From contig CP070691.1 of assembly GCA_020353195.1 (NCBI GenBank), positions 1,457,212-1,521,211 on the forward strand: DNA of 64,000 nucleotides. The letters are read 5' to 3'. This DNA comes from Phycisphaerales bacterium (GTDB lineage: Bacteria; Planctomycetota; Phycisphaerae; UBA1845). The notes below the pieces were generated by a model. That model was not told the DNA's origin. It was given only the letters and a program-made list of their open reading frames with translations, and made no database searches. How positions within the stretch are numbered: position 1 is the first letter of the stretch; the number at the start of each line of letters is the position of its first letter. The position numbers and the translations under genes were made by a program. Shown here one piece after another: positions 59,034-61,816 of the stretch.

Positions 59034-60179
59034 ATGTCGCAAAGTCAAACTGTCGCCCCGCATGGGGGAAAGCTCGTAAATCGTGTTGTCGAAAACGGCC
59101 CCCGCACCGAGCCGTCCACCCGAATCCGGCTGACGCAGCGGCAGCAGTGTGATCTGGAGATGATCGCCATCGGCGCGATGAGCCCGTTGGAAGGCTTCGT
59201 GGGGAAGGCTGACTATCACTCCATCTGTCAGAAGATGTGTTTGTCCGATGGAAGGCTGTGGCCGGTCCCGATCACCTGCGCGGTGGATGCGAGTGTCGCG
59301 GAGACGATCAGTGCGGGTGAGCAAGTCGTTCTGACCGATGACCGGGATCGCACCTTGGGCTACCTGACCGTGACGGAGACGTACTCGCACCCCAAAGCCG
59401 AGCAGGCCAAAACCGTCTTCCTGACGGAGGACACCGCTCACCCCGGGGTGAAGGTCCTGATGGACGAGGGCGACGTTTGCCTGGCGGGCGCGGTCGACGT
59501 GGTAACGCTCTGCCACGAACCGGAGTTCCCCCAGTTCCGCCTGACGCCGGCCCAGACGCGGCAGGCGTTCGCCGATCGCGGGTGGAAGACGGTGGTGGCG
59601 TTCCAGACCCGCAACCCGATCCACCGTGCCCACGAGTATCTGACCAAGTGCGCACTGGAAATCTGTGACGGGTTGCTGATCCACCCGCTGGTCGGGCAGA
59701 CGCAACCGGGCGATATCCCCGCCGACGTGCGGATGGCGTGCTACAACGCCCTGATCGAGAAATACTACCAGCCCAAGAGGACGATGCTGTCGGTCATGCC
59801 CGCGGCTATGCGGTATGCAGGACCGCGGGAGGCGATCCTCCACGCGATCGTCCGTCAGAACTTCGGCTGCTCGCACTTCATCGTGGGACGGGACCACGCC
59901 GGCGTCGGCGACTACTACGGCACCTATGACGCCCAGGAGATCTTCGAAACCCTGGATCCCGGCGACCTGCAGATCCGTAACCTGAACTTCGAGCACGCTT
60001 CGTGGTGCAACAAGTGCGAAGGCATGGTCAGCGTCAAGACCTGCCCCCACGGCAACGAGGACAAGGTCTTTTTGAGCGGCAAGAAGGTCCGGGCGATGTT
60101 GACCGAGGGGCAGAGGCCCCCGCAGGAGTTCTCCCGCCCCGAGGTTGCGGACATCCTGATCACGTCGATGAAACGGTAG
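59034..60179 (+). CDS. sat: Sulfate adenylyltransferase (ATP sulfurylase), stand-alone type
   Basis: In-frame ATG 59034 of track ORF 58932..60179. It contains FQTRNPIHRAHEYL and IVGRDHAGVG. There is no fused APS kinase domain. Confidence 0.92.
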   Translation: MSQSQTVAPHGGKLVNRVVENGPRTEPSTRIRLTQRQQCDLEMIAIGAMSPLEGFVGKADYHSICQKMCLSDGRLWPVPITCAVDASVAETISAGEQVVLTDDRDRTLGYLTVTETYSHPKAEQAKTVFLTEDTAHPGVKVLMDEGDVCLAGAVDVVTLCHEPEFPQFRLTPAQTRQAFADRGWKTVVAFQTRNPIHRAHEYLTKCALEICDGLLIHPLVGQTQPGDIPADVRMACYNALIEKYYQPKRTMLSVMPAAMRYAGPREAILHAIVRQNFGCSHFIVGRDHAGVGDYYGTYDAQEIFETLDPGDLQIRNLNFEHASWCNKCEGMVSVKTCPHGNEDKVFLSGKKVRAMLTEGQRPPQEFSRPEVADILITSMKR

Positions 60180-60233
60180 AAGCGGTTTCGGCGACGGTCG
60201 GCGCGATCGACCGTTTGGCGAGTGCTGGTAGGC

Positions 60234-61238
60234 ATGAACGTACCGGACGGTTTGATCGAACGATTGACGTCGTGGCGGCGGGCCGTGATCGTGGGGCACG
60301 TGACCCCTGACGCGGACTGCCTGGGCTCCATGATTGCGCTGGCGAAGGGCCTTGCCGATGACCGACGGTGCGAAGTCACGGTGTCGCTGCCGCCGGGAAG
60401 CGTCTCGCAGCGCCTGGCGTTCATCCTCGACCAGGCCGATCCCGCACTGGCCGACCCCCGCGCCTTCGCGGAGGCCGACGGAATCGTAGTCGTGGACACG
60501 GCCAAGGTCTCGCGCTGCAACGTCGACAGGTCGATTCCGGACAACTGGGCGGACGGCAAGACGGTGATCAACATCGACCACCACGCGTCGAACACGCGTT
60601 TCGGTGACATCAACTGGGTCGAAGCAGAGGCCAGCAGCACGGCGGAGATGGTCTACTGGCTGCTGCTGCGAGCGAACCGCTCGCTCAGTCCGATGCTCTG
60701 CTCGCTGCTGTACGCGGGCATGATCACCGACACCGTGGGATTCACGCTGTCGTCGACCGCCCCGGGCACGCTCCGGGTGGCCGGCGAGGTCGTGGCCCAG
60801 GGAGCGGACGTCGCCCAGATCGGGGAGCGCATGTACCGCAGCCTGACCGCCGGCGAGTTTCGACTTCTCCAGACGATCTACGCCAATACGCGCGTGGTCG
60901 CCGACGGGCGAATCGCTTACAGCACGGCCGATCACGACGAGATTACGGGAGCGGGATGCACGGCCGCCGACATCGACGATCAGGTCAACGTGCCGCGATC
61001 GCTGCGGGGCGTGAAGATCGCGATGCTGTTGACCGAAGGTGTCCGGGGCAAAACCAGGATCAACTTCCGCGGCGAATCCGGCGTGGAGGTCCTCGAACTG
61101 GCCAGGTCGCTGGGTGGGGGCGGCCACGCCGAAGCCGCCGGGGCCATCCTCGACATGCCGATCGATCAGGCGGTTCCCCTCGTGGTGGCCAGGACTACCG
61201 AGTATGTTGACCGGCTATCCGGCGGATCGGACTCATGA
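60234..61238 (+). CDS. nrnA: DHH/DHHA1 phosphoesterase, NrnA-like (oligoribonuclease / pAp phosphatase)
   Basis: Track ORF 60222..61238; ATG is at 60234. It contains GHVTPDADCLGS, NIDHHASN and GGGGHAEAAG. Confidence 0.85.
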   Translation: MNVPDGLIERLTSWRRAVIVGHVTPDADCLGSMIALAKGLADDRRCEVTVSLPPGSVSQRLAFILDQADPALADPRAFAEADGIVVVDTAKVSRCNVDRSIPDNWADGKTVINIDHHASNTRFGDINWVEAEASSTAEMVYWLLLRANRSLSPMLCSLLYAGMITDTVGFTLSSTAPGTLRVAGEVVAQGADVAQIGERMYRSLTAGEFRLLQTIYANTRVVADGRIAYSTADHDEITGAGCTAADIDDQVNVPRSLRGVKIAMLLTEGVRGKTRINFRGESGVEVLELARSLGGGGHAEAAGAILDMPIDQAVPLVVARTTEYVDRLSGGSDS

Positions 61239-61816
61239 GCGGAGTTACCGACGAGTTCATCACGATCGTATCCGGCCTGCCGCGGTCGGGGACCTCGATG
61301 ATGATGCAGATGATCCACGCCGGAGGAATCCCGGCGCTGACCGACGAGATCCGGGCCGCCGACGAGGACAATCCGAGAGGCTACTACGAGTTCGAGCCGG
61401 TCAAGAAGACGAAGCAGGACCCGTCGTGGCTGGAATCGGCGGCGGGCAAAGTCGTCAAGATGGTGCATCTGCTGCTGCTGGACCTTCCCACGGACCGCCC
61501 CTACCGCGTGGTCTTCATGGAACGGCGCTTCGACGAGGTCGTCGCTTCGCAGAACAGCATGCTCGAGCGACTGGGCAAGGGGATCGGCGACCTGCCGAAA
61601 GAGCGAATCATCCAGGTCTTCCGGGCGCAGATCGAGAGCGTGGACAAGTGGATGCGGGAGCATTCGTGCTTTCGGTTCGTCCGCGTCAGCTACAACGATC
61701 TGATCCGTGATCCCGGCCCGCCGGTGCAAGCGGTGAACGAGTTCCTCGGCGGCCGTCTCGACACCGGCGCCATGATGCATGTTGTGGATCCGTCCCTGTA
61801 CCGGCAACGGAGTTGA
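61235..61816 (+). CDS. Small sulfotransferase-family protein (193 aa)
   Basis: Its start overlaps the nrnA stop (ATGA 61235-61238). It has a PAPS 5'-phosphosulfate-binding-loop-like motif SGLPRSGTSMM and a downstream R-x7-S element (ERRFDEVVAS). Confidence 0.65.
   Translation: MSGVTDEFITIVSGLPRSGTSMMMQMIHAGGIPALTDEIRAADEDNPRGYYEFEPVKKTKQDPSWLESAAGKVVKMVHLLLLDLPTDRPYRVVFMERRFDEVVASQNSMLERLGKGIGDLPKERIIQVFRAQIESVDKWMREHSCFRFVRVSYNDLIRDPGPPVQAVNEFLGGRLDTGAMMHVVDPSLYRQRS

Follow-up and report, generated by a model that had tools for sequence, protein, structure and literature searches.

The question raised by this locus is whether three adjacent genes, all on the plus strand, constitute a self-contained sulfation module. 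A sequence-only reading of the window (the whole stretch of DNA analysed, 64 kb in length) had proposed that they do, assigning to them sulfate activation, sulfo transfer and removal of the by-product pAp (3'-phosphoadenosine 5'-phosphate). The open reading frames lie where that reading placed them, their family scores exceed the cut-offs, and the motifs it quoted (QTRNPIHRAHE, GRDHAG, LPRSGTS and R-x7-S) are all present in the translations. The first gene, sat (59034–60179, 381 aa; NCBI UCG17548.1), encodes a single-domain ATP sulfurylase (sulfate adenylyltransferase). It is followed after 54 bp by the gene for an NrnA-like DHH/DHHA1 phosphoesterase (60234–61238, 334 aa; UCG17549.1). The NCBI annotation of 334 residues implies a start at ATG 60234; the frame is also open from GTG 60222. 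The third gene (61235–61816, 193 aa; UCG17550.1), annotated as 'hypothetical protein JSV19_05865', encodes a predicted minimal PAPS-type sulfotransferase that we designate ST193. The stop codon of the DHH gene and the start codon of the ST193 gene overlap on the plus strand in the ATGA at 61235–61238, which can be read directly in the letters (...GACTCATGAGCGGAG...). The overlap could permit translational coupling of the two genes. It is not conserved: the corresponding gap is 5 bp in one related locus (L170) and 75–183 bp in other same-strand loci.

Sat is assigned to the ATP sulfurylases of the homo-oligomeric type. Both the ATP-sulfurylase catalytic domain and the PUA-like domain are present, with scores above the curated cut-offs for PF01747 (333.5 bits) and PF14306 (161.3 bits), as well as for NF003166 (535 bits, cut-off 387) and TIGR00339 (441 bits, cut-off 323). 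The translation carries the active-site motifs AFQTRNPIHRAHE (QTRNPxHRxH type) and FIVGRDHAGVG (GRDHAG). No APS-kinase domain is fused to the protein, as judged by the lack of a PF01583 match in the profile search. With the model for the bifunctional enzyme, NF004040, the score of 351 bits falls short of the cut-off (669), and the match covers the sulfurylase part alone (profile positions 36–388 of 572).

For ST193, two Pfam families exceed their cut-offs: PF13469, with 39.5 bits where 27 are required, and PF00685, with 26.8 bits where 22 are required. Both matches span the C-terminal part of the protein only. Used as a single query against PDB sequences, ST193 gave spurious matches to armadillo repeats, and a family profile was used instead; this profile matched essentially sulfotransferases alone. 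In its alignment with SULT1C3, GLPRSGTS corresponds to YPKSGTT, K-x-x-H to K-x-H, and R...S to the R...S of 'ARNPKDCLVSY'. The AF2 model (pLDDT 88.4, pTM 0.87) has a sulfotransferase fold and not that of a nucleotide kinase. The best 36 Foldseek matches to the model in the PDB are all sulfotransferases; TPST2, the CurM and OLS sulfotransferase domains, heparan sulfate 3-OST, StaL, Stf1 and Stf0 precede any kinase-like protein. The structure prediction thus bears out the earlier proposal of a sulfotransferase rather than a kinase.

The two PAPS-binding motifs occupy the expected structural elements. In the model the 5'-PSB loop, GLPRSGTS (residues 14–21), sits between strand 9–14 and helix 20–30, and across 30 homologues every one of its residues is invariant except Ser18, which is at least 90% conserved. 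The 3'-PB motif is R97-x7-S105 (RRFDEVVAS); Arg97 and Ser105, invariant in the same homologues, follow strand 90–96 and lie in helix 99–112. Lys75 and Gln106, the latter within the 3'-PB, are also invariant, as is a DEDNPxGYYE loop. A candidate for the catalytic base is His78, the counterpart in the alignment of the histidine in the K-x-H of SULT1C3, which is replaced by tyrosine in about one-third of the aligned homologues; the invariant acidic residues Asp37, Asp43 and Asp45 are alternative candidates. Fold, 5'-PSB and 3'-PB are thus common to ST193 and to PAPS-dependent sulfotransferases such as TPST2, the CurM/OLS domains, heparan sulfate 3-OST, Stf0 and the SULTs. ST193 differs from these in size, its 193 residues comparing with 250–350 in characterised enzymes, and the resemblance is distant (TM-scores 0.5–0.6, identity 12–20%).

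One member of the ST193 family, P0299, consists of an ST193 domain, 48% identical to the protein of the window, fused to an APS kinase (PF01583, 214 bits). Because both PAPS-binding motifs are intact, because the model matches only sulfotransferases, and because of this fusion, ST193 is, on the evidence of sequence and model, a genuine PAPS-type sulfotransferase for which sulfo-transfer activity is predicted. The possibility that it is instead a divergent APS kinase was considered and rejected: its loop is of the sulfotransferase type and lacks the lysine of GK[ST], and sulfotransferase matches dominate the fold comparison. It would also be unlikely for a domain fused to a bona fide APS kinase to have the identical function. 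Because the 5'-PSB loop begins almost at once, at residue 13, ST193 would have no signal peptide and would be cytoplasmic.

A PAPS-type enzyme raises the problem of its donor. As the sequence-only reading had noted, Sat has no fused kinase and there is no cysC nearby: tblastn with two CysC queries detected no APS kinase in the 64-kb window at E<1, and the same queries did find the separate cysC that lies 3 kb from an ST193 gene in locus L079. Among approximately 170 related loci, L079 is the only one with a separate cysC and L165 carries the ST193–APS kinase fusion; neither arrangement occurs in the Phycisphaerae strings that contain sat and the DHH gene. A self-contained module without a kinase, if real, would have implied new donor chemistry. 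It is conceivable that APS kinase is missing from the genome and that ST193 uses APS or some other donor directly, as the uniform absence of cysC from the Phycisphaerae sat/DHH/ST193 loci examined might suggest. Several observations make this highly improbable. The Arg97/Ser105 pair that would bind the 3'-phosphate is invariant and aligns with that of the SULTs, the family includes a fusion to APS kinase, and in relatives ST193 is accompanied by a HAL2 pAp nucleotidase. In addition, one Phycisphaerae MAG is reported to contain sat, cysC, cysH and sir (PMC4897734), the sole MAG-level statement on cysC in Phycisphaerae that we found, and the genome measures 3.79 Mb, of which the window covers only 64 kb. 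The evidence favours conventional PAPS chemistry, with a kinase gene that lies outside the window. Since ST193 keeps the 3'-phosphate-binding motif and has a kinase-fused relative, it should need such an enzyme.

The DHH protein was assigned to pAp removal in the sequence-only reading. Its two domains score above cut-off for PF01368 (64.5 bits) and PF02272 (32.3 bits), and it shares with NrnA, TM1595 and Rv2837c (CnpB) the DHH–DHHA1 architecture together with the metal-binding and GGGH motifs. The corresponding residues (Asp26, Asp28, Asp88, Asp115-His116-His117, Asp166 and Gly295-Gly296-Gly297-His298) are invariant in 31 orthologues. Among proteins of solved structure, its best sequence matches are to TM1595 (137 bits), MSMEG_2630 (94), B. 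subtilis NrnA (90) and Rv2837c (86). The protein departs from NrnA itself in scoring 111.3 bits with the equivalog model NF053633, below the cut-off of 350, and is for this reason best called NrnA-like. Among the characterised enzymes closest to it are NrnA proteins designated bifunctional oligoribonuclease/pAp phosphatases, and by sequence it is a candidate pAp phosphatase and/or nanoRNase; no residue-level feature tells the two activities apart. By analogy with the literature on related enzymes, and from its gene neighbours, pAp removal is a reasonable role. To that extent the earlier assignment is supported by NrnA relatives and archaeal precedent.

Three relatives (L026, L166 and L169) encode a second NrnA-like paralogue, a further departure from NrnA itself; specialisation of one copy would fit this. 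In some relatives a HAL2 pAp nucleotidase is encoded in the same gene string, and the DHH enzyme there may duplicate its action on pAp or may have a different task. An alternative reading is that the DHH enzyme serves the Sat reaction, either by hydrolysing pyrophosphate and so pulling APS synthesis forward or by trimming the pools of APS and PAPS. The pairing of sat with a downstream DHH gene is the commonest one observed (21 of 29 orthologue loci), and the DHH superfamily includes the family II pyrophosphatases. Their C-terminal domain, however, is DHHA2 and not DHHA1 with GGGH. Their matches to the window protein among the sequences of solved structures are weak, 28–35 bits against 86–137 for NrnA/TM1595 types, and identification of the protein as a family II pyrophosphatase was rejected on these two grounds. 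Trimming of PAPS has a precedent in T. onnurineus, whose homologue of the archaeal pApase reportedly acts on both pAp and PAPS (PMC8268124). The DHH gene nevertheless persists in loci without sat, and we judge a role in the Sat reaction to be improbable.

If the three genes formed a module, they should remain together, and they do not. In a scan of a genome collection, the DHH gene is adjacent to ST193 in 8 of 80 ST193 loci, and in five of these eight it lies on the opposite strand, in convergent orientation; in the remaining 72 loci ST193 is found away from it. In a metagenome scan, ST193 lies downstream of the DHH gene in 1 of 28 DHH loci and in one further fragment at a contig end. The expectation of three-gene co-conservation therefore fails. 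The individual gene identities behind the proposed module hold; its self-containment does not, since the trio is rare and the kinase is expected elsewhere.

A different pattern is conserved. In the window the trio is preceded on the plus strand by thrS (56244–58190) and infC (ORF 58416–58775; PF00707, PF05198; TIGR00168, 133 bits), whose true start probably lies further upstream than 58416. The thrS–infC pair serves as a conserved upstream anchor: in most related loci it is followed by sat, the DHH gene or both. The DHH gene follows it without sat in L096, L100, L108 and L170/L171; L170, the closest syntenic relative, has no sat and retains the DHH–ST193 pair. A full one-strand string of sat, DHH gene, ST193, HAL2 and phosphodiesterase is found in L166–L169, and part of it in L005, where the contig stops after HAL2. 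The HAL2 proteins of the string-bearing relatives score 402 bits on TIGR01330. The phosphodiesterase, a PF01663 protein of 464 aa, follows the DHH gene in 11 loci; tblastn did not detect it in the window.

It might be argued that such adjacency carries no functional meaning: the DHH enzyme would be a housekeeping nanoRNase travelling with thrS–infC, Sat would belong to assimilatory sulfate reduction, and ST193 would be a neighbour kept by phylogenetic inertia. The sat-less loci fit a housekeeping role in RNA turnover equally well, and a recent study describes NrnA as the short-RNA-processing enzyme of bacteria without Orn (PMC9757072). The separation of ST193 from the DHH gene in most of its loci, its different conserved operon in other phyla and the flips in its orientation relative to the DHH gene also favour mere adjacency. 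On the other hand, the four optional partners of the DHH gene (sat, ST193, HAL2 and the PF01663 phosphodiesterase) are all related to sulfur nucleotides. The last of these recurs in archaeal clusters with Sat, pApase and CysC, and the second NrnA-like paralogue of some relatives could cover nanoRNA turnover. Weighing these points, we find an association devoid of function somewhat unlikely.

The trio is thus no conserved, self-contained sulfation module but a combination specific to one lineage, set in a gene string that varies, and its members plausibly share sulfur-nucleotide chemistry. As an explanation of the whole, we favour with modest confidence one lineage's version of a Phycisphaerae string in which a metabolite economy is shared and no three-gene unit is obligatory. 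The string would be anchored by the NrnA-like DHH gene, in the order thrS, infC, sat, DHH gene, ST193, HAL2-type pAp nucleotidase and type-I phosphodiesterase, with sat and the three genes after the DHH gene each optional. Sat, by its family assignment, would make APS from sulfate and ATP, and an APS kinase, from a gene in another part of the genome, would convert APS to PAPS. ST193, as fold and motifs predict, would use PAPS to sulfate an acceptor, with release of pAp. The DHH enzyme would then split pAp into AMP and phosphate and might degrade dinucleotides as well, as the behaviour of its family and its gene neighbours suggest.

Archaea provide documented cases of a DHH-type pAp phosphatase encoded beside ATP sulfurylase (PMC8268124, PMC10322725). 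In Pyrococcus yayanosii (PYCH_17520–17560) and Thermococcus onnurineus, one cluster encodes Sat and APS kinase together with a type-I phosphodiesterase/nucleotide pyrophosphatase and a DHH protein whose pApase activity has been proven biochemically; in some archaea a sulfotransferase adjoins it (PMC8268124). The Phycisphaerae loci resemble this cluster: ATP sulfurylase adjoins a DHH/DHHA1 phosphoesterase in the window, the PF01663 phosphodiesterase occurs in the same string in related loci, and a sulfotransferase is present. The window and the related Phycisphaerae loci examined differ in having no APS kinase, and the window also in having no phosphodiesterase. The DHH proteins differ as well, that of the window being of the bacterial NrnA/TM1595 type; no archaeal pApase was recognised for it among solved structures at E≤1e-3. 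In Methanothermococcus thermolithotrophicus, a DHH-type PAP phosphatase (MtPAPP) encoded beside ATPS and APSK removes toxic pAp, which there comes from PAPS reductase, no sulfotransferase being present (PMC10322725). Again a DHH-family protein stands beside a sulfate-activating enzyme. MtPAPP, according to its authors, is homologous in sequence to the rest of the DHH family only in the DHH motif (PMC10322725), whereas the window protein is clearly NrnA-like. The recurrent Phycisphaerae string of ATP sulfurylase, NrnA-like DHH protein, HAL2 pAp nucleotidase and type-I phosphodiesterase thus mirrors an archaeal cluster with a proven DHH pAp phosphatase, and from this parallel the same activity can be predicted, in testable form, for the bacterial protein. 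In both domains the string or cluster also links cytosolic PF01663 phosphodiesterases with sulfur-nucleotide metabolism.

The sequence-only reading placed the trio between a glycan locus and a Maf-like gene. Both are in the window, the former at about 0.3–29 kb and the latter, an MptE/Maf-like gene (PF01973, 135.8 bits), at about 62.5–64.0 kb. The gene directly downstream of ST193, however, is aat (61868–62515, plus strand; PF03588, 235 bits; TIGR00667, 214 bits), which encodes leucyl/phenylalanyl-tRNA-protein transferase and is outside any sulfation function. It is also the neighbour of ST193 in L170, and lies downstream in L091. Some 30 kb of unrelated housekeeping genes separate the glycan locus from sat, and no match to a sulfotransferase family was found in a Pfam scan of 20 ORFs of that locus (4 of the 20 had no Pfam match of any kind). 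A functional tie to the glycan locus was rejected on these grounds, the suggested link to the Maf-like gene found no support either, and the nearness of the glycan locus is incidental. An Rfam search of the whole window returned no match, and predicted promoters and terminators between 55.3 and 62.7 kb were no more frequent than in shuffled sequence and so uninformative on operon structure.

The ST193 family is a better lead than the trio. It is very large and well conserved, with 1,494 cluster representatives at E≤1e-30 in many phyla, and it is without a characterised member or solved structure. The operon conserved in other phyla consists of two PF01663 genes, a gene for a 280-aa membrane protein and then ST193. 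Alkaline-phosphatase-superfamily proteins with TPR repeats are fused to family members or encoded in operons with them. A bolder proposal, which we regard as unlikely, is that ST193 stands for a large family, so far undescribed, of sulfotransferases of minimal size and apparently cytoplasmic location that work with alkaline-phosphatase-superfamily partners (type-I phosphodiesterase or sulfatase-like, often with TPR) in a conserved sulfation pathway. The acceptor might be a protein or a small molecule, and in Phycisphaerae the enzyme would have been drawn into the sulfur-nucleotide housekeeping string of sat, NrnA-like DHH protein, HAL2 and phosphodiesterase. A more extreme version would have the genome lack APS kinase and the enzymes use a different donor chemistry.

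Open reading frames and family scans place the trio of sat, an NrnA-like DHH/DHHA1 gene and the gene for the 193-residue protein ST193 within a run of plus-strand genes between 54.8 and 64.0 kb. The run includes folE (54795-55364), thrS (56244-58190), infC (ORF 58416-58775), sat (59034-60179; NF003166, 535 bits against a cut-off of 387), the DHH gene (60222 or 60234 to 61238, with both DHH and DHHA1 domains), ST193 (61235-61816), aat (61868-62515), and an MptE/Maf-like gene (62514-64000; PF01973, 135.8 bits) that is cut off at the window end. The proteins of the trio carry the NCBI accessions UCG17548.1 to UCG17550.1. 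ST193, annotated in the source genome as "hypothetical protein JSV19_05865", scores above the gathering thresholds of both PF13469 and PF00685. The DHH stop and the ST193 start share the ATGA at 61235-61238, as read directly. No kinase domain was found on Sat by family profile scan, and neither cysC nor cysH was detected in the window at E<1 by tblastn with two CysC queries and one CysH query; the same CysC queries recover the cysC of a related locus, L079. The sequence-only reading, which had described a same-strand trio with this overlap, a Sat without a fused kinase domain and no APS kinase in the window, is thus borne out.

Conserved motifs and the predicted fold identify ST193 as a sulfotransferase rather than a kinase. 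Thirty homologues have in common a GLPRSGTS loop, invariant at every position except S18, together with K75, R97, S105, Q106, a DEDNPxGYYE loop and a C-terminal PxLYR. In a confident AlphaFold model (pLDDT 88.4, pTM 0.87), GLPRSGTS follows a strand and precedes a helix, and R97/S105 lie at a strand-to-helix junction; these are the places at which the motifs for binding 5'-phosphosulfate and 3'-phosphate are located. Foldseek ranks 1 to 36 are all sulfotransferases, among them TPST2, the CurM and OLS sulfotransferase domains, 3-OST, StaL, Stf1, Teg12 and Stf0, and the first kinase-like protein appears at rank 37. The family profile matches essentially only sulfotransferases among PDB sequences and aligns PKSGTT of SULT1C3 with the ST193 loop, its K-x-H with K75/H78, and its R...S with R97/S105. 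The sulfotransferase assignment of the sequence-only reading therefore stands against the alternative of a kinase or other P-loop enzyme.

It is very probable that ST193 depends on PAPS, as suggested by its 3'-phosphate motif and by the company kept by its relatives. In one family member, P0299, which shares 48% identity with the window protein, the ST193 domain is joined in a single chain to a complete APS kinase (PF01583, 214 bits); the gene for P0299 (L165, 5093-6268) directly follows that for a 774-residue sulfatase/SGSH_C protein. In L079 cysC is a gene of its own, 3 kb upstream of ST193, and in relatives ST193 adjoins the gene for a 3'(2'),5'-bisphosphate nucleotidase of HAL2 type, with TIGR01330 scores of up to 402 bits. 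Given the invariant motif, the fusion, the nearby cysC and HAL2, the absence of an APS kinase is a statement about only 64 kb of a 3.79-Mb genome, and we expect the kinase to be encoded elsewhere in it. The genes sat, cysC, cysH and sir have been reported for one Phycisphaerae MAG (PMC4897734).

Co-conservation of the three genes, which the sequence-only reading would lead one to expect, does not hold. Within 10 kb on either side of ST193 in 80 species genomes, a DHH orthologue adjoins ST193 in only 8 loci, on the same strand in three (L005, L026, L042) and convergently in five (L011, L015, L018, L022, L030); sat is present in seven of the eight. Viewed from the DHH side, through metagenome and contig look-ups, 21 of the 29 orthologue loci that extend far enough upstream have sat before the DHH gene, infC directly abuts the DHH gene in three, a 464-residue PF01663 phosphodiesterase follows it in 11, and ST193 is downstream in 1 of 28 loci and in one contig-end fragment. 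In the closest syntenic relative, L170 (string at 5939-13183; L171 belongs with it), ST193 and the DHH protein are 72% and 65% identical to those of the window, the two genes are 5 bp apart, and the order nrdR-rsfS-folE-thrS-infC-...-DHH-ST193-aat-MptE-like is common to both, continuing in L170 with a radical SAM/SPASM gene. Sat is absent between infC and the DHH gene of L170, and so was gained or lost at exactly this position. With the counts from both sides, this shows that the three genes are not conserved together; they form a lineage-specific combination and not a dedicated module. The fullest version, thrS-infC-sat-DHH-ST193-HAL2-PF01663 phosphodiesterase (464 residues) on one strand, occurs in a Phycisphaerae sub-lineage (L166-L169; 1842-10526 in L166), and L005 shows the same string up to HAL2, where the contig ends. 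The DHH gene is the constant member; the partners that vary around it are all connected with sulfur nucleotides. In L091, the DHH gene and the phosphodiesterase are separated by an inserted 165-residue ORF (11581-12078) that by eye looks like a toxin-antitoxin component of the PIN/DUF3368 type; aat lies further downstream.

The DHH protein itself scores 111 bits on the NCBI NrnA equivalog model, against a cut-off of 350. Among solved structures its sequence is closest to T. maritima TM1595 (137 bits), followed by the NrnA proteins of M. smegmatis (MSMEG_2630; 94 bits) and B. subtilis (90 bits) and by Rv2837c (86 bits), with family II pyrophosphatases at 28-35 bits; several of these relatives are deposited as bifunctional oligoribonuclease/pAp phosphatases. 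Across 31 orthologues there is no variation in any metal-binding residue or in the GGGH motif. Hydrolysis of pAp has been reported for both B. subtilis NrnA and Rv2837c (PMC8268124), and a recent study presents NrnA as the enzyme that processes short RNAs where Orn is missing from a bacterium (PMC9757072). A purely housekeeping role for the DHH gene is credible, if rather unlikely. L166 and L169 carry a second NrnA-like DHH/DHHA1 paralogue some 5-6 kb beyond the string, and L026 has one as well, leaving room for a specialized sat-linked copy. We lean, by a modest degree, toward a single PAPS/pAp economy shared by the trio. Sat would form APS, a kinase encoded outside the window would convert it to PAPS, ST193 would spend PAPS on an acceptor, probably in the cytoplasm, and the DHH enzyme would clear the pAp.

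The nearest described system is an archaeal cluster that combines ATP sulfurylase with a DHH pApase, a type-I phosphodiesterase and APS kinase; its DHH member has been proven to be a phosphatase specific for pAp, and in some archaea a sulfotransferase adjoins the cluster (PMC8268124). In M. thermolithotrophicus, a DHH-type PAP phosphatase is likewise encoded beside the ATPS and APSK genes (PMC10322725). Apart from APS kinase, the Phycisphaerae string is made up of the same players. Its DHH protein belongs to another, NrnA-like subfamily; no archaeal pApase was recognized among the solved structures matching it at E≤1e-3. The window's own string additionally lacks the phosphodiesterase and HAL2.

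The placement of the trio between a glycan locus and a Maf-like gene was loosely drawn: aat separates the Maf-like gene from ST193, and 30 kb lie between the trio and the glycan locus upstream of it (364-29000, about 0.3-29 kb), with chaperonin genes, peptidases, a CLC channel, nrdR and rsfS on the way. That locus encodes GFO/IDH/MocA oxidoreductases, a hexapeptide acyltransferase, two DegT aminotransferases, a Wzy_C-like protein, at least five GT4 glycosyltransferases, an NDP-sugar dehydratase and nucleotidyltransferase, a heparinase II/III-like protein, a GNAT protein and a polysaccharide deacetylase/DUF3473 protein. None of its 20 scanned ORFs matches a sulfotransferase family, and nothing in evidence ties the trio to it. 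Three large ORFs (3112-4647, 4840-6729 and 20511-21725) have no Pfam match; the first two fall within a stretch whose GC content is lower (0.57-0.60).

Several minor features of the neighborhood may be recorded. Two GroEL-like genes (30624-32264 and 32825-34435) flank a GroES-like gene (32451-32765), as judged by eye from translations. A very long ORF of up to 1,015 residues spans 49453-52500; the part translated from 50200-52500 has no Pfam match, nor does the 771-residue protein at the orthologous position in L170. Measured from the first start codon that follows a stop, the thrS ORF has 648 codons, some 60-90 residues fewer at the N terminus than ThrS homologues of related loci (707-740 residues). 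The true start of infC is probably upstream, since the IF3_N match begins only at profile position 46; rpmI-rplT, its usual followers, do not come after it here. The MptE-like orthologue of L170 has 645 residues and precedes the radical SAM/SPASM protein.

The more interesting residue of this analysis is the uncharacterized ST193 family itself. Of 8,000 scored candidates, 7,978 match at E≤1e-3, the best 120 being about 193 residues long and at least 61% identical; an exhaustive profile search returns 5,939, 3,502 and 1,494 cluster representatives at 1e-3, 1e-10 and 1e-30. Members at least 50% identical occur in Planctomycetota, Thermodesulfobacteriota, Chloroflexota, Nitrospirota, Kiritimatiellota and other phyla. 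The recurrent partner belongs to the alkaline-phosphatase superfamily. P0278, P0292 and P0384 (866-952 residues) join a type-I phosphodiesterase (PF01663) and TPRs to ST193, and P0289 joins ST193 to a sulfatase (PF00884). A conserved same-strand operon consists of two genes for PF01663(-TPR) proteins of about 700 residues, one for a 280-residue membrane protein without a Pfam match, and ST193 last (L029, 4673-10561; L064, 4717-10558; also L032, L035, L046, L052 and L060). Outside Phycisphaerales, the PF01663-membrane protein-ST193 operon is found in Thermodesulfobacteriota, Ca. Kuenenia and Phycisphaeraceae. A TPR or PMT_2-TPR gene lies near the operon, and one of its PF01663 proteins carries a TAT signal match.
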